A stretch of 47,331 bases of DNA from the IMG/VR virus record IMGVR_UViG_2778261458_000002, one strand, 5' to 3'. Each line of letters opens with the position of its first letter. The first letter of the stretch is position 1. Position numbers and translations under genes: made by a program. Source of the stretch: a virus (Duplodnaviria; Heunggongvirae; Uroviricota; Caudoviricetes). A model generated the notes under the pieces. It saw nothing but the letters and a program-made list of their open reading frames with translations. It was not told where the DNA came from and did not search any database. Positions 15,190-35,989 of this stretch are shown one piece after another.

Positions 15190-15540
15190 AGTTCCCTTAA
15201 AGGTTAAGGATACTCACCACCGTCTGGTTCCAATCATTGGGTGGTGAGACGTACAGGGTTGGAACTACCGGTCACCATGGAATCCGGCGAGTCTTACGAC
15301 TCCCCCGCACGCCCCACCATAATTTGGGTGTAGCAGTGCTTTACGCATAAAAAACCGCTAACGCGGTATGCGCCATGATGATTATCGGGGTTCCAATCCC
15401 GACCGTAGATTTTGCTACGGCTCGGAAAGTGTCCACCAATGGCGCATTCATGTCAATACGGCGAGATTTTAACAGAGACAACCACATAGCGTGGGTTTGA
15501 AAAACGGAATTTTCTGTTCATTAAGCGCATGATTTGACCA
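15190..15540 (-). ncRNA. structured leader / candidate c4-like antisense RNA of the ant operon
   Basis: 350-nt untranslated region with repeated GGTTCCAAYC segments (15227, 15386) and a complementary TTGGAAC segment (15259), plus a CTCACCACC...GGTGGTGAG stem; boundaries unknown. Confidence 0.3.
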
Positions 15541-16296: not shown

Positions 16297-16733
16297 TGAG
16301 TGAAGAAACAAAAAAACCGCCCTATTGAGGACGGTTCTTTCGTGCTGATCGGATTCGCGGTCCTTTCAGCATTACGTTGTTGTATAAACAACCACGCAAG
16401 CACAAGCAGCAAGTTGATTTTACCCAAAAGGTAATAATAGTCCACTATTATGCTTCAAAAAATTGTGGTTCTTGTTGTGTCTGCAAACTCACAGATTGTG
16501 GGTAGGTTACTGATTTTGTGAAAATAAACTGGTTTTTTCGTTTAATTTATTTCCTATTACTAATCTTAAAATAATCGTAAAATACCTGTGGACCTTCCCG
16601 CCGATTCGCACCCGGGCACCGACTTTAGGGGAGGATTCTCCGTTGCCGTACATGCAAGCACAAGCAGCCGTGCTTGCTCTCGCGTTGTTTTCGTCGGTGG
16701 GGATGCCGTGAAACGGCCTGTAAGGGCCATACA

Positions 16734-16856
16734 ATGAAAAAATACTGTATGTGTATTTTTATCGTTGTTACTGGGGCTTTGTTTACGCCACATGGGGAGG
16801 GTTGGAAGATTACTGATAACGCTCTGAATGTGACGATAAACATTAGCAGCAAGTAG
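16734..16856 (+). CDS. small hydrophobic peptide (40 aa), speculative
   Basis: MKKYCMCIFIVVTGALFTPHG... preceded by a long hairpin-rich leader and followed by a strong terminator; no Hok signature. Confidence 0.25.
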   Translation: MKKYCMCIFIVVTGALFTPHGEGWKITDNALNVTINISSK

Positions 16857-16862
16857 CGATTA

Positions 16863-16884
16863 GGCCCCTTCGGGGGCCTTTTTT
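16863..16884 (+). terminator. intrinsic terminator
   Basis: GGCCCC-TTCG-GGGGCC hairpin followed by TTTTTT. Confidence 0.7.
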
Positions 16885-17106: not shown

Positions 17107-17355
17107 TTACTTCTGGTTGTATTGAGCCTTGAGTAACTCAAAAGATTTTGTCAGCACTTCTTTCAATGACATATCCATTGAGCTGGCGAACGTTTTGTAC
17201 TCGCGTTTAAATTCAGGGTCGACGTTAAACGCCATTTGTGCCCCACCTGATTTGGTTCTGGTTGGCGTTTCAGTCGGGTCGAAAACCTGCGGTTGTTCGA
17301 TCGATGGCGGTACGCCTTTGCTGTTCTTCTTTGGTGGTTTTGATGGTCCGGCCAT
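17107..17355 (-). CDS. ParG-like ribbon-helix-helix partition/centromere-binding protein
   Basis: 82-aa ORF directly downstream of ParA gene; basic Pro-rich N-tail and C-terminal RHH-like segment (MAFNVDPEFKREYKTFA). Confidence 0.55.
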   Translation of the reverse strand: MAGPSKPPKKNSKGVPPSIEQPQVFDPTETPTRTKSGGAQMAFNVDPEFKREYKTFASSMDMSLKEVLTKSFELLKAQYNQK

Positions 17356-17398: not shown

Positions 17399-18067
17399 TT
17401 ACGCGGCAGTAGTCAGAGCCTCAAGCTGGTTGATAATCCCCTGAATAACGTCGTCTGCCTTTTTGCGTGGCGCAACGTATGAGCACTCAATGAGGCTTAA
17501 GCCCTTATCCTGAGCTTTGCTCAGAGCTGGCTTGTGGGGAATGTACTTATCGACAACAAAGTATGGCGTATTAGCCAGGTACTCTTGGGCTTCGATGTAG
17601 TCAGCTTCGTTTTCAGCCGCGCCGGAAAACACCATGCAAATTTTCTTGATTGGTACACCCTTTTTAACGATGCCGTGAGCCGTGTTAACGGTGGTTTCCA
17701 GGTCATCGGTAGAGAATCTGGTTGGCAAAATAACCATATCCAGAAATTCAGAGAGCTTCGGTACTGATTCAGATGCGTAGGCACCGCCATCGACGATAAC
17801 CAGGTCGTATACTTCTGATTCGATGATTTTCTGGACTTGTGATGGTGTGCCGCACGGCTGCGCCGCGATTGCTGGTTCGATATTGTTGGCCATTCTGCGT
17901 TGTACCCAACGCGTTACCGTTCCGTTAAGCACATCCATATCGATCAGGCATACATTCCAGCCAGCCTTTGCATAAGCAACTGCTAAAGCACGGGCAATTG
18001 TTGATTTGGTTACGCCGCCTTTTCCGTTGAAAATACCTACAGAGATAGTCATTTGTCGAGACTCCAT
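17399..18067 (-). CDS. parA: ParA-family partition ATPase (small type Ib, ParF-like)
   Basis: 222-aa ORF with deviant Walker A GKGGVTKST near N-terminus and Walker B-like LVIVDGG. Confidence 0.8.
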   Translation of the reverse strand: MESRQMTISVGIFNGKGGVTKSTIARALAVAYAKAGWNVCLIDMDVLNGTVTRWVQRRMANNIEPAIAAQPCGTPSQVQKIIESEVYDLVIVDGGAYASESVPKLSEFLDMVILPTRFSTDDLETTVNTAHGIVKKGVPIKKICMVFSGAAENEADYIEAQEYLANTPYFVVDKYIPHKPALSKAQDKGLSLIECSYVAPRKKADDVIQGIINQLEALTTAA

Positions 18068-26668: not shown

Positions 26669-26744
26669 GGCCCCTTAGCTCAGTGGTTAGAGCAGGCGAC
26701 TCATAATCGCACGGTCATCGGTTCAAATCCGGTAGGGGCCACCA
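26669..26744 (+). tRNA. tRNA with CAU anticodon, ileX-like (tRNA-Ile2 lysidine type) or tRNA-Met
   Basis: 76 nt, GGCCCCTTAGCTCAGTGGTTAGAGCAGGCGACTCATAATCGC... with acceptor stem GGCCCCT/AGGGGCC and 3' CCA; 5' half matches my recollection of E. coli ileX. Confidence 0.85.
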
Positions 26745-27030: not shown

Positions 27031-27618
27031 ATGGAGGCAATTGCATTGTTTAATCTGATTTATGCAGATCCCCCCTGGGAATACAAAGACAAGTGTAAGG
27101 ATGGGAATCGTGGCGCTGGTTTTAAGTATCCAACGATGAAAGCTGAGGAGATTGCTCGTATTCCTGTCTGGCAGCTTGCTAATCCTGAATCGTGTTTGTT
27201 GGCCATGTGGTGGGTTCCGACTCAGCCAGAAGAAGCGTTGCTGGTGGTGAAAGCATGGGGATTCAGGCTTATGACCATGAAGGGCTTCACATGGAACAAA
27301 TGTGGTAGCCGACAGCCAGATAAGCTGGTGATGGGGATGGGGCATATGACTCGTGCGAACAGTGAAGATTGCTTGTTTGCGGTAAAAGGCAAACTGCCGA
27401 CCCGCCTTGATGCGGGAATCATTCAGTCGTTTACATCGCCTCGTCTGGAACATTCACGGAAGCCTGATGTGGTTCGTGACAAGCTGGTAAGACTGTTAGG
27501 TGATGTTCCTCGTATTGAGCTGTTTGCTCGCGGTGATTTACCTGATGGCTGGCATGGCTGGGGCAACCAGTGCAATGGAGGTATCCAATTGCATGATGCT
27601 CTCTGGCAAGTGGTATAG
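27031..27618 (+). CDS. DNA N6-adenine methyltransferase, MT-A70 family (orphan)
   Basis: 195-aa ORF with IYADPPWEY catalytic motif; no restriction endonuclease gene adjacent. Confidence 0.75.
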   Translation: MEAIALFNLIYADPPWEYKDKCKDGNRGAGFKYPTMKAEEIARIPVWQLANPESCLLAMWWVPTQPEEALLVVKAWGFRLMTMKGFTWNKCGSRQPDKLVMGMGHMTRANSEDCLFAVKGKLPTRLDAGIIQSFTSPRLEHSRKPDVVRDKLVRLLGDVPRIELFARGDLPDGWHGWGNQCNGGIQLHDALWQVV

Positions 27619-28996: not shown

Positions 28997-29404
28997 ATGC
29001 GCACCGATCTAGATTATCTAAAAAAGATGCTGACTGTGTTTTTGGATTCAGAAAGCACGTTCATAACAGTAAATCAACTAAGAGATGCGGGGTTTGATAT
29101 AGCCTCAGAAAAGGGCATGTTTCATTATATGCAATTGATTGAGCAAGGTTTTATCAGCAATATGAAGATGGAAACGCGTGATCCTCTGCGTCTTGGCTAT
29201 GTTAATTCCTTTGCAGGAATGAGGACTGTTGATGTAGATATTAGATTGACTACAGAGGGACAGGATTTTGCCTGTGCACTAGAGAGCAAAGATGTTTTCG
29301 CTAGACTAAAAGAAATTAGCAATGAGCCATTGGCTGTTATGAAGGATGTTGGTGTAGAACTTCTCAAGTCATTGGCAAAGAAGAAGTTTGGTTTATCTGA
29401 TTAG
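28997..29404 (+). CDS. hypothetical protein
   Basis: 135 aa from ATG 28997 (AAGGAGG RBS 6 nt upstream); followed by strong terminator. Confidence 0.45.
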   Translation: MRTDLDYLKKMLTVFLDSESTFITVNQLRDAGFDIASEKGMFHYMQLIEQGFISNMKMETRDPLRLGYVNSFAGMRTVDVDIRLTTEGQDFACALESKDVFARLKEISNEPLAVMKDVGVELLKSLAKKKFGLSD

Positions 29405-29434
29405 TGCAGATACCTGTTTGCTATTTATTTATAA

Positions 29435-29462
29435 AACCACCTGCGGGTGGTTTTGTTTTTTT
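29435..29462 (+). terminator. intrinsic terminator
   Basis: AACCACC-TGCG-GGTGGTT hairpin followed by TTTTGTTTTTTT. Confidence 0.7.
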
Positions 29463-29696
29463 AGCATTACAGCAGCTCTTGTGCTTACCAGGGGCTGCGA
29501 TAATGCGCAAACCAAAGCTGCCTCATTAACTCCAGCTCGCTGTAGAGTTAATGCTGGTTGCTTTTTTATTACTGGAAGGTGGGCGACCGCCGTCAGTTGC
29601 GACCTGACGACAGTCATTCATACCCACAGGGTGCCGTGGATACAAACCGAGGCCCACTTGCTTGCACAAGCGAGGGGATTTTAGCGGATAAACGGC

Positions 29697-30320
29697 ATGA
29701 CAAAACATCTTAATGTGGTTTCTTTACCACTTTCTGTGTTGATTGGTTATGAAAAGAACGCTCGCACACACTCCGTGGAGCAGGTAGATCAGATTGTTGC
29801 CAGCATACAGGAGTACGGATGGACTAATCCGATCCTGATAGACGAGAACAACGTTGTAATTGCTGGTCATGGTCGAATTGCTGCGGCCACTCAGTTGGGG
29901 ATGGATGATGTTCCCTGCATTGTTCTGGAAGGGCTAACGGAGAATCAGAAGAAGGCATATCGTCTGGCCGACAACCGTATTCCGCTGAATGCTGGTTGGG
30001 ATGAAGAGCTGTTAAGCGCGGAGCTTGCAGATCTTGCGGCCGATGATTTTGCTCTGGACTCAATTGGTTTTACTCAGCGCGAACTGGATAACTTATTGAG
30101 TGCGGCAGTCTACGATGACACAGAGGGTATGGATATCCCATTTGAGAAGGATGAGGCCAAATCAGGCGTAAAAGTTCAGTACCTGTCATTTGGAGGTCAT
30201 AAAATCCCGGCAACGGATGAGGAAGCGGATCGTTTTGACTGCGCGGTGTCTCGTTATGTTGATGATAATGGCAGCTATATCGGATTTGTATCCGCATTGC
30301 TGGCTGGGGAGGTGTGCTGA
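29697..30320 (+). CDS. ParB-like nuclease domain protein (paralog 1)
   Basis: 207-aa ORF; KNARTHSVEQVDQIVASIQEYGWTNPILID...AGHGR ParB/Srx-type N-domain; homologous over its length to ORF 32986-33576. Confidence 0.65.
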   Translation: MTKHLNVVSLPLSVLIGYEKNARTHSVEQVDQIVASIQEYGWTNPILIDENNVVIAGHGRIAAATQLGMDDVPCIVLEGLTENQKKAYRLADNRIPLNAGWDEELLSAELADLAADDFALDSIGFTQRELDNLLSAAVYDDTEGMDIPFEKDEAKSGVKVQYLSFGGHKIPATDEEADRFDCAVSRYVDDNGSYIGFVSALLAGEVC

Positions 30321-31693
30321 TGCTTCACCTCAATTACGACATAACGCACCTACGCGGCGCGGAATATAACCCGCGTTTTATCGGTGAGGATGATCTTGCG
30401 AGGCTGGCAGAAAGCGTCAGGGAGCTGGGGCTTGTGAAGCCATTGATAGTGCGCGGCGATTTGCTGGTGGCGGGACACCAAAGGACGAAGGCGCTACGTA
30501 AGTTGGGAATAACGCGTGCTGCGGTGTATGTGTTGCCCTGTGAAACGACGGTATACGACGAAGTACGGTTTAACCAACTGCATAACGGAACGGATTTTGA
30601 TAGCGGAGATGAGCGTTGCAGGGTGTCCGGTCTGGAAGATAAGCATGGTTTTGTTCAGGTATCGGCAAGCCAGATCTCAGGCAATATGCGCGCGAAAATG
30701 GCATATGTTCGAAAGAACATAGCGGAACTGGTTATCAAGTATGGTCCGTGGGGGGGTTGTGTTGCGACTCAGTCTGGCGAGGTTATTCACTGTGCTCAGT
30801 ATGCATTAGCAGCGAAGATGACGCGCACACCGCTAACGGTGTTTGTGATCCCTGATGTTGAGAAGGAAAAATACCAAAGTTATCTGAATAAAACTTATGG
30901 TGTATTTGAGTATTCTCATCTGGAGAAAACAACATACATCCAGACGTATGCGCAGCTTATGCGGTTGCGTAATGGTGGCAGCCTGAAATCAAACCTGTAT
31001 GAGTCGTTGATCCTCCCGATCATTGCCAAGACGCCAAGAGGAATTGATTTTGGTTCGGGGCAGGGAGACTACGCGCGAATGCTCAGGGCAAAGGGGTATA
31101 ACCTGCATGATCTCGAGCTTTTCCGCCGTAAGGGCGCAGGAAACACTCTGGATAGGGCTGCAACAAACCGAATGATTGATACGCTGGTGGACGACTTAAA
31201 AACGCGAGGGCGTTACGACTACGTGATTTGCGATAGCGTTTTGAACTCGGTCGATAGTGTCGAGGCTGAATGGTCCGTTCTGACGGTTCTGAAAGGCCTG
31301 TGTAAAGCTGGTGGGTCAATATTCTTTTCTGGTCGTAGCCGTGGAGAGCTGGAAACAGTCCTGAAGCAAACACAAGCGGCGAGTTCCAAAAGCCGGCTTT
31401 ATTTTATTGATCATAACGGTTTTACCGCGTTGTACCGGAAGGGGCACTGGTTTTACCAGAAGTTTCACTCTGATGATGAAGTGAAGCAGTTGTGTCGTGT
31501 ACATGGTTTCAGGATTAAGCGGTCAATATTCAACTGTAAGAGCTGGTATTTGCACGTCATTAACGATGATTCCCTTAGTTGGGCGAGTCTGGAGAAAGCT
31601 GTTCGTTTTGAGTTTGAGTTGCCGTTGCCTGGTGGTTCAACAATCGGACGATCTGATGATGTGCTGGCGGCTTTCCGGCCGTTGATTAAGTAG
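30314..31693 (+). CDS. fusion protein: ParB-like N-terminal domain + class I SAM-dependent methyltransferase-like domain
   Basis: 459-aa ORF; N-terminal NPR...VAGHQR ParB-like segment; C-terminal DFGSGQGDYARML (GxGxG) and DYVICDSVL; no DPPY/DPPW motif. Confidence 0.55.
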   Translation: MLMLHLNYDITHLRGAEYNPRFIGEDDLARLAESVRELGLVKPLIVRGDLLVAGHQRTKALRKLGITRAAVYVLPCETTVYDEVRFNQLHNGTDFDSGDERCRVSGLEDKHGFVQVSASQISGNMRAKMAYVRKNIAELVIKYGPWGGCVATQSGEVIHCAQYALAAKMTRTPLTVFVIPDVEKEKYQSYLNKTYGVFEYSHLEKTTYIQTYAQLMRLRNGGSLKSNLYESLILPIIAKTPRGIDFGSGQGDYARMLRAKGYNLHDLELFRRKGAGNTLDRAATNRMIDTLVDDLKTRGRYDYVICDSVLNSVDSVEAEWSVLTVLKGLCKAGGSIFFSGRSRGELETVLKQTQAASSKSRLYFIDHNGFTALYRKGHWFYQKFHSDDEVKQLCRVHGFRIKRSIFNCKSWYLHVINDDSLSWASLEKAVRFEFELPLPGGSTIGRSDDVLAAFRPLIK

Positions 31694-31709
31694 TGTGTAG
31701 GAGGCGCTG

Positions 31710-32429
31710 GTGGCTGACAGAATTGAGATAAAGATGGATTTTTCTTCTCAGGATATTCAACGACAACTCCAGCGCCTTGAAGAACGCGAATTGCCGTTCG
31801 CAATGGCGCTTGCGGCAACCAGAACGGCAAAGGCTTCTCAGGCTGCGATTAAGAATGAAATTAATCGGGTATTTGACAGGCCCACGCCGTGGATTCAGAA
31901 CTCTACTTACGTTTTGGCCGCAAAGAAGAGTGATCCTACAGCCATTGTGTATGCTCGTGAATGGGGAGGAACGCCAGCCCCTGTAACGTTGACTCCGCAA
32001 ATCGAAGGTGGCCAACGACAGTACAAACGCTCAGAAGGGGCGCTAAGGGCTGGTGGATATTTGCCTAACGGCTGGCAGCTTGCTCCTGGTCCCGGCGCAA
32101 AGCTGGACAAATACGGGAATATTTCGCGGGGGCAATTACAGCAGGTCTTATCTGGCCTAAGAGTTCAGCGAGATGCGCATCAAAATCGCCGTCAGGGCAA
32201 GCCTACGGAGTTTTTTGTTGTTCGACCTGGTACAAGTAACCCGCTTCAACCAGGCGTCTGGCAGCGCGTTGGGCGGCGTCCTACGTTGATCCTTACGTTT
32301 ATCCAGCAACCTAACTATTCGCAGCGTCTTGATTGGCATGGCGTGGCGCTGCGTGCTGGTGAGGATGCGTTTGCTGATGAAGTCACAAAGGCTATTGATG
32401 ACATTCTTTCTAAGACCTTCTCTCGTTAA
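31710..32429 (+). CDS. hypothetical protein
   Basis: 239-aa ORF directly downstream of ParB-MTase gene; no family recognised. Confidence 0.4.
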   Translation: MADRIEIKMDFSSQDIQRQLQRLEERELPFAMALAATRTAKASQAAIKNEINRVFDRPTPWIQNSTYVLAAKKSDPTAIVYAREWGGTPAPVTLTPQIEGGQRQYKRSEGALRAGGYLPNGWQLAPGPGAKLDKYGNISRGQLQQVLSGLRVQRDAHQNRRQGKPTEFFVVRPGTSNPLQPGVWQRVGRRPTLILTFIQQPNYSQRLDWHGVALRAGEDAFADEVTKAIDDILSKTFSR

Positions 32430-32985
32430 TCATCGTGTGGTTGATGGTGTTGTTATGCAGAGTGTATTCACTGTGTTCTGTAGTGTCGCTCGCTGGCTGT
32501 CTGTGGGGGAGCACGAGCATCGTTTCATCGTCCGGCAGAATTGGGTCCTTCTGGCCAAAAGCGTTGGATGCGGGTCATTCGAACCCCGATGTTCGGCTAG
32601 CTAAACGTGAAAAAAGTTAGGTTAAAAGTTGCGGTAAAAGAAATTTACTCATCTCATTGAAAAATATCGGGAAAACGTGATTTTTTGCTGTATTTGTGCT
32701 GGTAAAAAGAAAGTAGAAAATTTTCTTTTAGATCATCAAGATACGCGCAGATCTTTAACCAATGTGATGTTGTTCTGATAAAAATCGTTATAAATCATGC
32801 AAATACATCCAATCTTTTAACCAAAACACCATCTCAAGATCCTTTTTACTTATAAAAACTTAATAAAATCAGATATTATGCTGGTTTGTGTGATTTTTTA
32901 TGAGTAAAAAGATCGTCATTTTTCTCTTTTAGTATCAATAAGTTAAACAGTTTTCTTTAACCTGTTGTGTTATGGCGGTTAAAAA

Positions 32986-33576
32986 ATGGCTCTAAAAATC
33001 GAATATTTACCAGTCGGTAAGCTGCTCAGATATGCCAAAAATTCACGGACTCATTCAGATGAGCAAGTTGAACAGTTGGTGAACAGTATCCGTGAGTTCG
33101 GTTTCACTAATCCTGTGCTGATCGATGAAAAGAATGAACTGATTGCGGGGCATGGGCGGCTTGCAGCAGCCGAAATTCTGGAAATGGATAAAGTTCCGGC
33201 GATTCGGTTGAGTAACCTTTCTGAAAAACAGAAGAAGGCGTACAGGATTGCAGATAACAAGCTGGCCTTAAATGCTGGCTGGGATATGCAGCTTCTGGCC
33301 GAAGAAGTCAAAGAGTTAATGGATGATGATTTTGATATTGATCTGCTTGGGTTTAATGATGCAGAGCTTGACGAAATGTTAAGCGATGAACAGCCGCAGG
33401 AAGAAGACGATAATTCTTCCCCTGTTGTTCAAATTAAGTACCTGGCTATTGATAAAGAACGTATTCCCGCGACGGATATGGAAATTGCATTGTTGCTGGA
33501 TGTTTATCGTCAGTACCACGACGCGCATGAAACGCATGAGGGATTTGTTCAGTATCTTGCTAATGGTTGCAAGTAA
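32986..33576 (+). CDS. ParB-like nuclease domain protein (paralog 2), first gene of packaging operon
   Basis: 196-aa ORF sharing KNSRTHSDEQVEQLVNSIREFGFTNPVLIDE...AGHGR and C-terminal IPATD segments with paralog 1; stop overlaps terminase small subunit start. Confidence 0.65.
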   Translation: MALKIEYLPVGKLLRYAKNSRTHSDEQVEQLVNSIREFGFTNPVLIDEKNELIAGHGRLAAAEILEMDKVPAIRLSNLSEKQKKAYRIADNKLALNAGWDMQLLAEEVKELMDDDFDIDLLGFNDAELDEMLSDEQPQEEDDNSSPVVQIKYLAIDKERIPATDMEIALLLDVYRQYHDAHETHEGFVQYLANGCK

Positions 33577-34127
33577 TGGTCATCGTCAGTAAGTCAGAGT
33601 TTGCCCGCCGGAAAGGTATTTCTCCGGCAATGGTTACGAAGCTCTGTCGTTCCGGTCGCATTCCAGTGCTGAAAAGCGGCAAGCTGGATTTTGATAAAGC
33701 CAGTGCGGCTTATGAAGCGAGCCGACAGGTTGGCCGTGAGGTATCTGCTGAAAATGGAAAAAGAGGGCATGGGATATCTTCGGAACAACCAGAGTTACCC
33801 GCTGATGATGCCGGATTAGCTGGTGGTACTTCCGGTGTTGCGGTGCAATTCAACAAGGCTAAGACCGCAGAAAAAATTTATCAGGCAAAGCTGAAACGCC
33901 TTGAATTTGAAGAAAAGGAAGGCTCTCTCATCGCTAAAGATGCGGTCAGGGATGATGCATTTCTGGCAGCTAATGAATTGCGTAGCCGCTTATTTAGTAT
34001 TGCTCCAAGAGCAGCTCCCCGTTGTGAAGGCAAAACAGCCAGGGAGATCGAACGCATTATTGAAGACGAGATTAATTTTGCGCTTCAGGCGCTCCAGGAA
34101 TCCCGATTTATTAAGCAGGAAGAATAA
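33576..34127 (+). CDS. terminase small subunit (Nu1-like N-terminal HTH)
   Basis: ATG 33576 overlaps upstream TAA; SKSEFARRKGISPAMVTKLCRSGRIPV winged-HTH like lambda Nu1; directly upstream of large terminase. Confidence 0.5.
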   Translation: MVIVSKSEFARRKGISPAMVTKLCRSGRIPVLKSGKLDFDKASAAYEASRQVGREVSAENGKRGHGISSEQPELPADDAGLAGGTSGVAVQFNKAKTAEKIYQAKLKRLEFEEKEGSLIAKDAVRDDAFLAANELRSRLFSIAPRAAPRCEGKTAREIERIIEDEINFALQALQESRFIKQEE

Positions 34128-34132
34128 ACCTC

Positions 34133-35989
34133 ATGGGCGAAACAGTATGGAGCACCGCTTTTTTCCGTGCGCTTCGCCCTAAATCACGGCTAACTGTTTC
34201 CGAATGGGCTGATAAGTATCGTCATGTAGCGCCGGGAACGTCTCCAGAGCCAGGGCCGTGGCGTACAAGCCGAGTGCCATATTTGCGTGAACCAATGGAT
34301 GTTATTGGTGACGCTGATACAGAAACAGTAGTGATGCAATGTAGCTCGCAAATTGGTAAATCCGAATTACAGCTAAATGTTATGGGTTACTTTGCAGATC
34401 AGGAGCCATCTCCTCAGTTGATGATTTATCCAACGGTAGAGGCGGCTGAGGCTTTTTCAAAAGAGCGTATTGATCCGACGTTCAAATATTCCCCTGGTTT
34501 GAAACACAAGCTGCATGAAGGGAAAGAGGGGCGCGGTGCAGCCAAAAAGTCCAGCACGACTATACGTATGAAGCATTACGCTGGTGGATATATAGCACTT
34601 GTTGGTGCTAATTCCCCAGCAGGTCTTGCATCCAGGCCAATTCGAATACTGTTAGCTGATGAGATTGATCGTTACGGTGTGACGCAGGAGGGCGACCCAC
34701 TAAAACTAGGTATTCAGCGTACTACCAACTTTCATAATCGTAAGAAAGTTTTTGTTTCTACTCCTGTTTTGGAGGAAACGAGCAAAATCCACAAGTGGTT
34801 TAAGCTCTCCGATCAGCGTTACTACCATGTTCCTTGCCCATGTTGTGGCACCATGCAGGTGATGAAATGGTCGCAAGTCAGATGGGATAAGAGCGATTCA
34901 GGTGAGGCGTTACCGGAAACGGCCAGATATGAGTGCTGTGAGTGCGGCGGGATTATGCGCGGATCTGGTAAACCAGACGTTGATTGGTTGGCGAAGGGGG
35001 TATGGATAGCTGAACATACTGGAGTTAAAGGTATTGTTGGTTTTCATATTAACAGTCTTTACTCCCCGTGGGTTGCATTGTCAGAGCTGGTTGAAGAATT
35101 TACGGAAGCAACCAGAAACCGCGATAAAAATGGATTAATGGAGTTTATTAACCTTAAGCTGGGTGAGCCATGGAAAGAGGATGCTAAAGACGATATAGAT
35201 CCTGAATACTTGTTGCAACGCAGAATAAGGTTTGAAGAGTTTTTACCAGATGATGTTTTATTGTTAAGTGCTGGTGTTGACGTACAGGACACGTATTTAG
35301 TTTGTGAATTGGTCGGTTGGGGAAAAGGTAAGGAGTCATGGGGGATAGAATATAAAATATTCCCAGGTGATCCCGCACAAGATGTTGTCTGGAAACAACT
35401 TGATGAATACTTACTCCGTAGCTGGTCATTCCGTGACGGTCGAAAATTACAGATTTCTTCTGTTTGTATTGACTCTGGTGGGCATTTTACGACAGAGGTA
35501 TATCGCTTTACTAAGCCGAGAGAATCAAGGCGAATATACTCTATCAGGGGGCGTGGTGGGGTAGGTTTACCATTTATAGGAAAGCCAAGTAATAATAACC
35601 GTGTGGGTGCTATGTTGTTTAATTTAGGGGTTGATGATGGTAAAGGGACCATCATGGCAAGAATTAAACTACATGATCCTGGTCCTGGTTATATGCATTT
35701 CCCATTAGATTCTGACAGAGGATATGATACCGAATACTTTAAAGGATTATTATCAGAGAAAAAAATATTTGAATATAAAAATGGGCAGACAAAAGAAAAG
35801 TGGGTGAAAGTCTACGAGCGTAACGAGCCTCTTGATTGCCGTAACTATGCAACTGCCGCGATGGAAATTCTGAACCCTAATTTTAACTGGCTTGCCGAAC
35901 AGGAAATGCGAGGTAATGTGTATGTGCAGAACTCGTCAGGTATACGTAGAAGACGCCGTAGAGTTATAAGTAAAGGCGTAACCATATAG
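34133..35989 (+). CDS. terminase large subunit (lambda gpA family)
   Basis: 618-aa ORF; N-terminal TVSEWADKYRHVAPGTSPEPGPWRTSRVPY resembles gpA; Walker-A-like SSQIGKS; size and position. Confidence 0.8.
   Translation: MGETVWSTAFFRALRPKSRLTVSEWADKYRHVAPGTSPEPGPWRTSRVPYLREPMDVIGDADTETVVMQCSSQIGKSELQLNVMGYFADQEPSPQLMIYPTVEAAEAFSKERIDPTFKYSPGLKHKLHEGKEGRGAAKKSSTTIRMKHYAGGYIALVGANSPAGLASRPIRILLADEIDRYGVTQEGDPLKLGIQRTTNFHNRKKVFVSTPVLEETSKIHKWFKLSDQRYYHVPCPCCGTMQVMKWSQVRWDKSDSGEALPETARYECCECGGIMRGSGKPDVDWLAKGVWIAEHTGVKGIVGFHINSLYSPWVALSELVEEFTEATRNRDKNGLMEFINLKLGEPWKEDAKDDIDPEYLLQRRIRFEEFLPDDVLLLSAGVDVQDTYLVCELVGWGKGKESWGIEYKIFPGDPAQDVVWKQLDEYLLRSWSFRDGRKLQISSVCIDSGGHFTTEVYRFTKPRESRRIYSIRGRGGVGLPFIGKPSNNNRVGAMLFNLGVDDGKGTIMARIKLHDPGPGYMHFPLDSDRGYDTEYFKGLLSEKKIFEYKNGQTKEKWVKVYERNEPLDCRNYATAAMEILNPNFNWLAEQEMRGNVYVQNSSGIRRRRRRVISKGVTI

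Follow-up and report, generated by a model that had tools for sequence, protein, structure and literature searches.

A locus that pairs an acidic ParB-like protein with a basic ParB-methyltransferase fusion was analyzed at positions 29697 to 33576 of a 47,331-nucleotide viral DNA (IMG/VR record IMGVR_UViG_2778261458_000002; the whole stretch is referred to below as the window), which is a temperate phage-plasmid of Escherichia coli with a myovirus-type contractile tail. The locus is tentatively interpreted as a ParB-Tls modification module in which the basic fusion and its acidic partner (ParB1) would act on phage DNA around packaging. ParB-Tls loci were defined by comparative genomics as the interval from a ParB-like gene to the large terminase gene, holding methyltransferase or other DNA-modifying genes that are sometimes fused to ParB, and in the available descriptions their predicted role is the modification of phage DNA during packaging (PMC4738411; PMC6536676). 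As in those loci, ParB1 and a paralog (ParB2) lie upstream of, and in the same orientation (plus strand) as, the genes of the small (terS) and the lambda gpA-type large (terL) terminase subunits, and a fusion of ParB to a Methyltransf_23 domain lies between ParB1 and terL. The described loci, as far as these accounts go, hold N6A/N4C or C5 DNA methylases or other known DNA-modifying enzymes, whereas the enzyme here is a Methyltransf_23-type class I methyltransferase without DNA-methylase motifs, a probable cos site splits the locus, and two stand-alone ParB paralogs are present.

Gene Organization of the Locus

All four open reading frames (ORFs) that an initial annotation of this DNA had placed on the plus strand are present. 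ParB1 (29697-30320; 207 amino acids [aa], isoelectric point [pI] 4.3) matches Pfam ParB_N and phrog_620 (E = 2.9e-74) and is followed by the fusion gene (30320-31693; 457 aa, pI 9.2). The fusion had been described as a 459-aa protein; its domain make-up was borne out, but the length was not, as the ATG at 30320, which overlaps the ParB1 stop codon as TGATG and agrees with the N-termini of homologs and with RefSeq, was preferred to the GTG at 30314. The third of the four genes, ORF C, is described with the flanking features below. ParB2 (32986-33576; 196 aa, pI 4.5), a paralog with the ParB/Srx fold, overlaps the small terminase gene (33576-34127, plus strand; 183 aa, pI 9.1; phrog_57, E = 4.5e-42) by 1 nt as TAATG. 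The proposed coupling of ParB2 to a Nu1-like small terminase therefore holds for the overlap, but the start was moved from the TTG at 33567 to the ATG at 33576, and the Pfam scan gave no Nu1 match for the protein; the Nu1-like label is owed to the position of the gene and its pairing with the gpA-type large terminase (34133-35989, plus strand; GpA_ATPase, E = 7e-76; GpA_nuclease, E = 1e-84).

Family, Motifs, and Structure of the Fusion Protein

The fusion matches PHROG 5475 ("unknown function") over its full length (E = 1.6e-265; residues 3-459, numbered on the 459-aa ORF from GTG 30314, against profile positions 1-457 of 458), and residues 234-400 match Methyltransf_23 (PF13489; 32.7 bits, Pfam cutoff 27). 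A word-indexed search found 716 homologs; the best 120 listed are 45-99% identical and mostly 455-480 aa long, with Enterobacterales, rhizobia and metagenomes as their sources. When 1.84 billion representatives were searched exhaustively with a profile, 308 clusters (50% identity) were returned at E ≤ 1e-30, and the best 150 of these are mostly 440-500 aa long and cover nearly the whole profile, the others being shorter partial sequences and two fusions of 658-659 aa. The protein shares its domain architecture with PHROG 5475 and with an architecture, ParB plus Methyltransf_23, whose enrichment in phages and prophages is noted in a survey of ParB-CTPase folds from 2025; the available text of the survey labels it a predicted DNA methyltransferase and gives no function, partner, synteny or substrate for it (bioRxiv 10.1101/2025.10.10.680097).

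Three domains can be delimited in 457-aa numbering: a ParB fold (residues ~1-93, nt 30320-30598), a second alpha/beta domain (~102-193, nt 30623-30898) and a class I S-adenosylmethionine (SAM)-dependent methyltransferase domain (~232-457, nt 31013-31690). Structure prediction with AlphaFold2 gave a confident model (pLDDT 93.9, pTM 0.90) in which the domains are packed as one compact body. An alignment of 55 family members contains 68 invariant columns, and the motifs below are numbered on the 459-aa ORF (subtract 2 for the 457-aa protein). The ParB domain carries Y-N-P-R (18-21), K-P (42-43), A-G-H-Q-R (53-57) and F-N-Q-x-H-N-G-T-D (86-94), the last of which is an invariant stretch at the position expected for box III. 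An invariant block in the middle domain comprises R133, G144-x-W-G, H159 and Q-Y-A (162-164). The methyltransferase motifs are D-F-G-x-G (245-249), E268, D307-x-V-x-N-S-x-D, R341 and W-F-x-Q-x-x-H (379-385); those that bind SAM (DFGxG, E268, D307 and others) are invariant in the alignment, and motif I reads DFGSGQG in the window. Pfam, PHROG and motif scans thus agree with the initial annotation on ParB/Srx folds joined to a class I SAM methyltransferase that has motif I and no DPPY/DPPW, and methyl transfer activity is predicted from the fold and the motifs.

In the AlphaFold2 model, strands and helices follow one another in the middle domain as they do in the first. In an internal-repeat test the profile of the first domain did not match the middle domain, and a deeper profile built from the N-domains of stand-alone ParB proteins aligned to it weakly and in register (66 columns, P = 4.7e-4), with N-x-R retained and GxxR replaced by H-C-A-Q-Y. 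The middle domain is likely a degenerate second ParB fold.

The possibility that the C-terminal domain is a standard N6-adenine or N4-cytosine DNA methyltransferase was checked and finds no support, as the catalytic motif is missing and PF01555, PF02384 and MT-A70 are not matched. The hallmarks of C5-cytosine DNA methyltransferases (Pro-Cys, ENV) were not found either, the sole "PC" (residue 73 in 457-aa numbering) sitting in the ParB domain. Comparison with a library of viral folds returned generic methyltransferase and ParB matches only.

Stand-Alone ParB Proteins

ParB1 and ParB2 are 48% identical across 201 aa (E = 1e-61), a similarity well above what chance would give, which confirms that they are paralogous along their whole length. 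Both match phrog_620 (E about 1e-74); ParB2 scores above the Pfam gathering score of ParB_N (33.7 bits), and ParB1 (24.8 bits) and the fusion (24.3 bits) lie just below it. ParB1 consists of a domain with the motifs N-x-R, SI..G and AGHGR, an acidic helical linker and a conserved C-terminal domain of ~45 aa that is kept across 48 fusion-associated stand-alone ParB proteins. The pocket motifs of the ParB-CTPase fold (N-x-R, SI..G, AGH(G/Q)R) are conserved, and nucleotide binding is predicted on this basis. The stand-alone partners are acidic (median pI 4.6, n = 48) and the enzymes basic (median pI 8.7, n = 79).

ParB1 and ParB2 share homology, over their N-terminal ~140-150 residues, with the ParB module of fusions between ParB and N6/N4 DNA methylases (PF02195 plus PF01555; phrog_498; PADLOC MTase_II), which occupy the same genomic position. 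The match to phrog_498 has an E-value of about 1e-51, and only profile positions 7-158 of MTase_II are matched (14-158 by ParB1; E about 1e-40), the E-values for the two resources ranging overall from about 1e-38 to 1e-52. A tblastn search placed the N-terminal ~140 residues at 30-60% identity to the ParB domains of methylase fusions in 402 phage records, and PADLOC indicated no membership in a defence system except for this ParB part of type II methylases. ParB1 and ParB2 differ from the methylase fusions in lacking a methylase domain and in having the distinct ~45-aa C-terminal domain; the fusion protein differs from them in that its own ParB domain belongs to a different clade with greater divergence and its catalytic domain shows no relationship to PF01555.

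The diversity of the stand-alone proteins was drawn from the related loci described in the next section, since a homolog search with ParB2 gave only ~99% identical sequences. Two stand-alone ParB proteins are found in 6 of 49 clusters: the window lineage (L001, L015), L037, L041, L063 and the L076 group. In a rough neighbor-joining tree without bootstrap support, both copies group together within each of L037, L041, L063 and the L076 group; in the window lineage of the same tree, ParB2 branches just outside ParB1 and its closest relatives and would therefore be an older duplicate or have been acquired by recombination. The partner gene thus appears to have been duplicated repeatedly across lineages, and in L041, an independent lineage, one copy again lies directly ahead of the terminase genes.

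Conserved Neighborhood in Related Loci

A scan of viral contigs yielded 77 fusion loci that fall into 49 clusters at 90% identity, 43 of them with enough upstream sequence and 40 with enough downstream sequence for analysis. A full-length stand-alone ParB of the ParB1/ParB2 subfamily is encoded on the same strand within 1.3 kb upstream of the fusion in 40 out of 43 clusters, directly adjacent in 32 of them. A large terminase gene follows within 5 kb downstream in 35 out of 40, so that the fusion lies between the partner and the terminase as it does in the window. The terminases beside the module belong to four Pfam types (gpA, TerL_ATPase/nuclease, Terminase_6, and Terminase_3). The contexts in metagenome and genome contigs agree with this synteny, and the module also occurs beside terminases in integrated prophages and non-plasmid phages. 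In two metagenomic representatives (P0379 and P0380; 658 and 659 aa, 42% identical to each other) partner and enzyme are joined in a single chain, an arrangement that speaks for joint action of the two.

In 31 related loci (e.g., L005:2210-2644, L003:8419-8883, and L042:7398-7865) the enzyme gene is followed by a third gene, whose conserved product of ~145 aa shows the motifs HCARCL, YLCGV and TCRNFQFG and matches nothing in Pfam or PHROG. Among the most distant relatives, the L076 group (L072-L080; e.g., L073:8790-10499), the gene order is ParB, ParB, fusion, three small ORFs, an SNF2-family helicase and the large terminase, and the helicase therefore sits within the ParB-Tls interval. Amidoligase_2 genes adjoin the module in L003 (a Bradyrhizobium prophage) and L007 (a metagenomic phage), with GGACT/AIG2-like genes also present in L003.

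A Probable Cohesive End between the ParB Paralogs

The junctions of the records of two Yersinia phages that match this region, vB_YpM_39 and vB_YpM_44, differ by exactly 12 nt, GGTCATTCGAAC, which correspond to positions 32573-32584 of the window. Within the intergenic region, conservation is highest in this block and the GC-rich sequence on either side of it, as seen in relatives whose fusion proteins are 90% and 69% identical to the one studied here. Based on the record junctions, the conservation and the gpA-type terminase, the block is probably a 12-nt cohesive end (cosN) that separates the two ParB paralogs. If this is correct, ParB1, the fusion and ORF C would be genes of the right end of the virion DNA and ParB2, terS and terL genes of the left end, with ParB2 the first gene there, and the two sets would be contiguous only in the circular or concatemeric form. 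The position of the locus resembles that of the lambda late genes, which read through cos.

The motif GGTTAAARR has six matches in the window, five of them between cos and ParB2, and many copies of it are also present in this interval of a diverged relative. The cluster of GGTTAAARR and GTTAACC repeats (32620-32985) probably represents binding sites for the small terminase (cosB-like), the basic small terminase being the more plausible predicted binder of these repeats. About 90 nt of the interval between cos and ParB2 (32712-32801), including one GGTTAAAGA repeat, are missing from vB_YpM_44, and that repeat is therefore dispensable.

The window contains 13 Chi sites (GCTGGTGG), all on the plus strand, against an expectation of 1.1. 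Five of these lie within the fusion and ORF C genes (30463-32056), just inside the probable right cos end. Chi in this orientation is suited to act on RecBCD that enters from the right cos end.

Proposed Function and Alternative Explanations

Under the ParB-Tls interpretation, the module would be a late-expressed unit that adjoins the packaging genes, with the cos site dividing it. The basic 457-aa protein, with its ParB/Srx nucleotide-binding fold, its probably degenerate second ParB-like domain and its class I SAM methyltransferase, would be the catalytic component, and acidic ParB1 would bind to it as an obligate partner or activator. The complex would most probably methylate replicated phage DNA, or something bound to the DNA, just before or during packaging, and the genome delivered to the next host would thereby be marked or protected. 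ParB2 would be a diverged copy of the partner, placed before the small terminase and translationally coupled to it. DNA is proposed as the substrate because of the synteny and the partner's ancestry; the catalytic domain's fold gives no specific support to this substrate, nor does fold comparison specifically support the label "DNA methyltransferase" for the ParB plus Methyltransf_23 architecture. More broadly, a function in DNA or nucleotide modification or in anti-restriction, as put forward in the initial annotation, is a reasonable inference from the sequence.

The activator role proposed for ParB1 parallels that of phage ParB-like proteins, composed of a nucleotide-binding and a C-terminal domain without a DNA-binding domain, which are reported in the available account to activate 5mYOX thymine dioxygenases on double-stranded DNA in vivo and in vitro (PMC13229309). 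ParB1 resembles these proteins, as they are described there and at the level of architecture only, in being a stand-alone phage ParB fold with the same domain layout, an enzyme-adjacent gene and N-x-R / S / GxxR motifs. The difference lies in the partner, which here is a SAM methyltransferase that itself bears ParB folds, not a dioxygenase. The dioxygenase work is the sole direct test found in the literature, in which no experiment on the ParB component at a ParB-Tls locus was found.

Several points weigh against a DNA-modifying module. In the dioxygenase system, as far as it is described, mutations of the nucleotide-binding residues had little effect, and the role of the ParB fold is uncertain there too (PMC13229309). 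A documented modification of the DNA of this phage was not found in the literature. The fusion lacks a [DNS]PP[YFWH] motif (in its narrower form (D/N/S)PP(Y/F/W)) and a recognizable target-recognition domain, no catalytic cysteine is invariant across the 55 homologs, and profile scans predict no DNA-binding domain in ParB1, ParB2 or the fusion. The third gene of the related modules was not found anywhere in the window (ORF C was rejected by phmmer as its homolog), so that this lineage may have an incomplete or a rewired module. Finally, the synteny with the terminase may reflect only late timing and not a mechanistic link.

A serious rival, if an unlikely one, is that the enzyme spares DNA bases: the ParB/Srx fold would bind a nucleotide, a phosphorylated small molecule or a protein (terminase, portal, or capsid) that is then methylated, the effect being, for example, that an immune signal of the host is neutralized or the packaging machinery tuned. 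The absence of DNA-methylase motifs fits this explanation, as do the closest solved folds of the C-terminal domain, which are small-molecule, natural-product and tRNA methyltransferases, and those of the N-terminal half, which include the ParB-fold enzymes SerK (a serine kinase), SbnI and sulfiredoxin besides PadC and KorB. It is further favored by the packing of the domains as a single body and by the ATP binding that is reported, in the available account, for ParB-fold fusions to SAM methyltransferases. Against it stand the tight linkage to large terminases of four different families, the homology of the partner to the ParB domain of genuine DNA methylase fusions, and the basic nature of the enzyme, which is expected of a protein that binds nucleic acid.

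A bolder and still less probable picture is that the acidic ParB, the methyltransferase with tandem ParB folds and, in other lineages, the small Cys-rich protein form a nucleotide-gated machine for modification, so far uncharacterized, that is linked to the terminase. In chemistry it would differ from all known phage DNA methylation, with N7 or N3 of a purine, a backbone phosphate or a packaging protein as possible targets, the two ParB folds would mimic a nucleotide-closed ParB dimer in one chain, and the duplicated partner would link the enzyme (through ParB1) and the small terminase (through ParB2) across cos.

Two further roles are less likely. It is improbable that the ParB-like proteins are primarily packaging accessories, acting as nicking nucleases or terminase-assembly factors at cos in the manner of HNH proteins, with the methyltransferase being secondary. 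The translational coupling of ParB2 to the small terminase, the position of the two paralogs on either side of the probable cos site and the independent placement of a ParB copy directly before the terminase genes in L041 are what such a role would predict, and some ParB-like domains, one of them fused to a methylase, are reported to nick DNA (PMC5512222). However, gpA-type terminases have a nuclease domain of their own, most relatives couple the stand-alone ParB to the methyltransferase fusion and not to a terminase, and the ParB proteins are strongly acidic and lack a DNA-binding domain. The module also accompanies terminases of the Terminase_6 and Terminase_3 types. Many enzymes of these types package by the headful route, without cos cutting.

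More improbable still is that the capsid takes up the proteins and that they are injected along with the DNA, like the Dar and Ddr anti-restriction proteins of P1, to protect the DNA in the next host. The genes do adjoin head and packaging genes, P1 packages DdrB, which has a ParB domain, and injected "polyvalent" proteins commonly contain ParB domains (PMC5512222), but capsid-targeting, MuF and peptidase domains were not found in Pfam and PHROG scans, and none of the general scans run placed the proteins in a DdrB-like ParB clade.

A conventional partition role for ParB1 and ParB2 is effectively ruled out, even though the element is a plasmid prophage and some database records name these proteins "chromosome (plasmid) partitioning protein": they share with partition ParB (the CTP-dependent DNA clamp of ParABS systems) the N-terminal fold and the layout of boxes I, II and III (NPR for QPR, AGH(G/Q)R for GERR), but the hydrolysis glutamate of GERR and its first arginine have given way to other residues, the partition model TIGR00180 is matched by the N-terminal ~75 residues only (profile ~10-98 of 186; 16-40 bits against a cutoff of 58.45) with its helix-turn-helix half unmatched in ParB1, ParB2 and the fusion, no parS-like array or long repeats were found across 29400-33100 (only short repeats at chance level, except for the GGTTAAARR cluster), the ParA gene lies ~12 kb away on the opposite strand with its own 82-aa partner, and the same ParB genes sit next to terminases in integrated prophages and non-plasmid phages.

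Flanking Features and the Element Carrying the Locus

The upstream unit is closed by an intrinsic-terminator-like hairpin with a T-run (29431-29462, plus strand; seen in a terminator scan and by direct reading of the sequence), which is separated from ParB1 by a 234-nt non-coding stretch. A sigma-70 promoter scan gave fewer hits than in shuffled sequences, and Rfam recognized no RNA family within the region. A 16-nt repeat upstream of both ParB genes, TTAATGCTGGTT, was rejected as a regulatory motif, since loose matches are common and it overlaps a Chi-like GCTGGT core. ORF C (31710-32429, plus strand; 239 aa, pI 10.1), which had been listed as an unknown, is present and can be assigned to PHROG 1924 ("minor tail protein"). 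In Pseudomonas F10/MD8/JBD68-like phages its homologs in this family stand last in the gene order, at the right genome end, and ORF C is outside the module in general.

The region 29400-34200 matches circular plasmids of ~48 kb in 74 out of 5,426 complete E. coli genomes (≥90% identity; 69 at ≥99%), with 80 of the matching places on plasmids and 3 on chromosomes; E. coli ATCC 25922 is one of the carriers. Further matches were found in Escherichia phage vB_EcoM-613R2 and Yersinia phages vB_YpM_39, 41, and 44. The RefSeq annotation of the ATCC 25922 plasmid comprises RepA, a ParA-family gene, a toxin-antitoxin pair, lysis genes, a head module that includes the lambda gpA-type terminase, and a contractile tail; the window is classed as a phage-plasmid because this plasmid bears replication and partition genes together with lysis, head and tail genes. 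ParA is encoded at 17399-18067 (minus strand), and the 82-aa ORF directly downstream of it (17107-17355, minus strand), which has no Pfam or NCBIfam match, is, judged by its position, likely the centromere-binding partner of the plasmid's own partition system.

Elsewhere in the window, a stand-alone MT-A70-family methyltransferase is encoded 2 kb upstream of ParB1 (27031-27618, plus strand; Pfam E = 2.4e-23; PHROG 359 "DNA methyltransferase"), so that the element also carries a gene of the canonical adenine-methylase type. A tRNA gene with a CAT anticodon (26669-26744, plus strand) is annotated as tRNA-Ile in one record and as tRNA-Met in another. Rfam matches above the gathering score were found for C4 antisense RNA, isrK and ryfA, at 15237-15324 (minus strand), 15348-15421 (minus strand) and 16588-16884 (plus strand). 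The C4 RNA presumably marks an immunity region of the P1 type, and the annotation of an ORF6N-domain protein in the ATCC 25922 plasmid would be in keeping with this.

Significance

The arrangement had been called unusual in the initial annotation. It instead exemplifies a locus type that has already been described and a protein family that is catalogued and uncharacterized: the gene order is that of the published ParB-Tls loci as far as these are described, the fusion belongs to PHROG 5475 and to a phage-enriched architecture, and complete E. coli genomes carry the locus repeatedly. A number of its features have no earlier report that could be found in the literature, namely the resemblance of the enzyme to small-molecule and tRNA methyltransferases and its lack of DNA-methylase motifs, the possible degenerate second ParB fold, the pairing of acidic and basic components, the partner-enzyme fusions, the repeated duplication of the partner and the probable 12-nt cos between the paralogs.

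ParB-Tls loci are among the commonest phage sites for DNA-modification genes. The fusion family is widespread, as its 308 clusters at 50% identity indicate, and it can easily be tested via E. coli ATCC 25922 and the isolated Yersinia and Escherichia phages. Should the enzyme prove to modify DNA, it would be a DNA-modifying methyltransferase outside the classical families, and enzyme activation dependent on ParB would have a second example; otherwise, the "DNA methyltransferase" labels on this architecture would be wrong.

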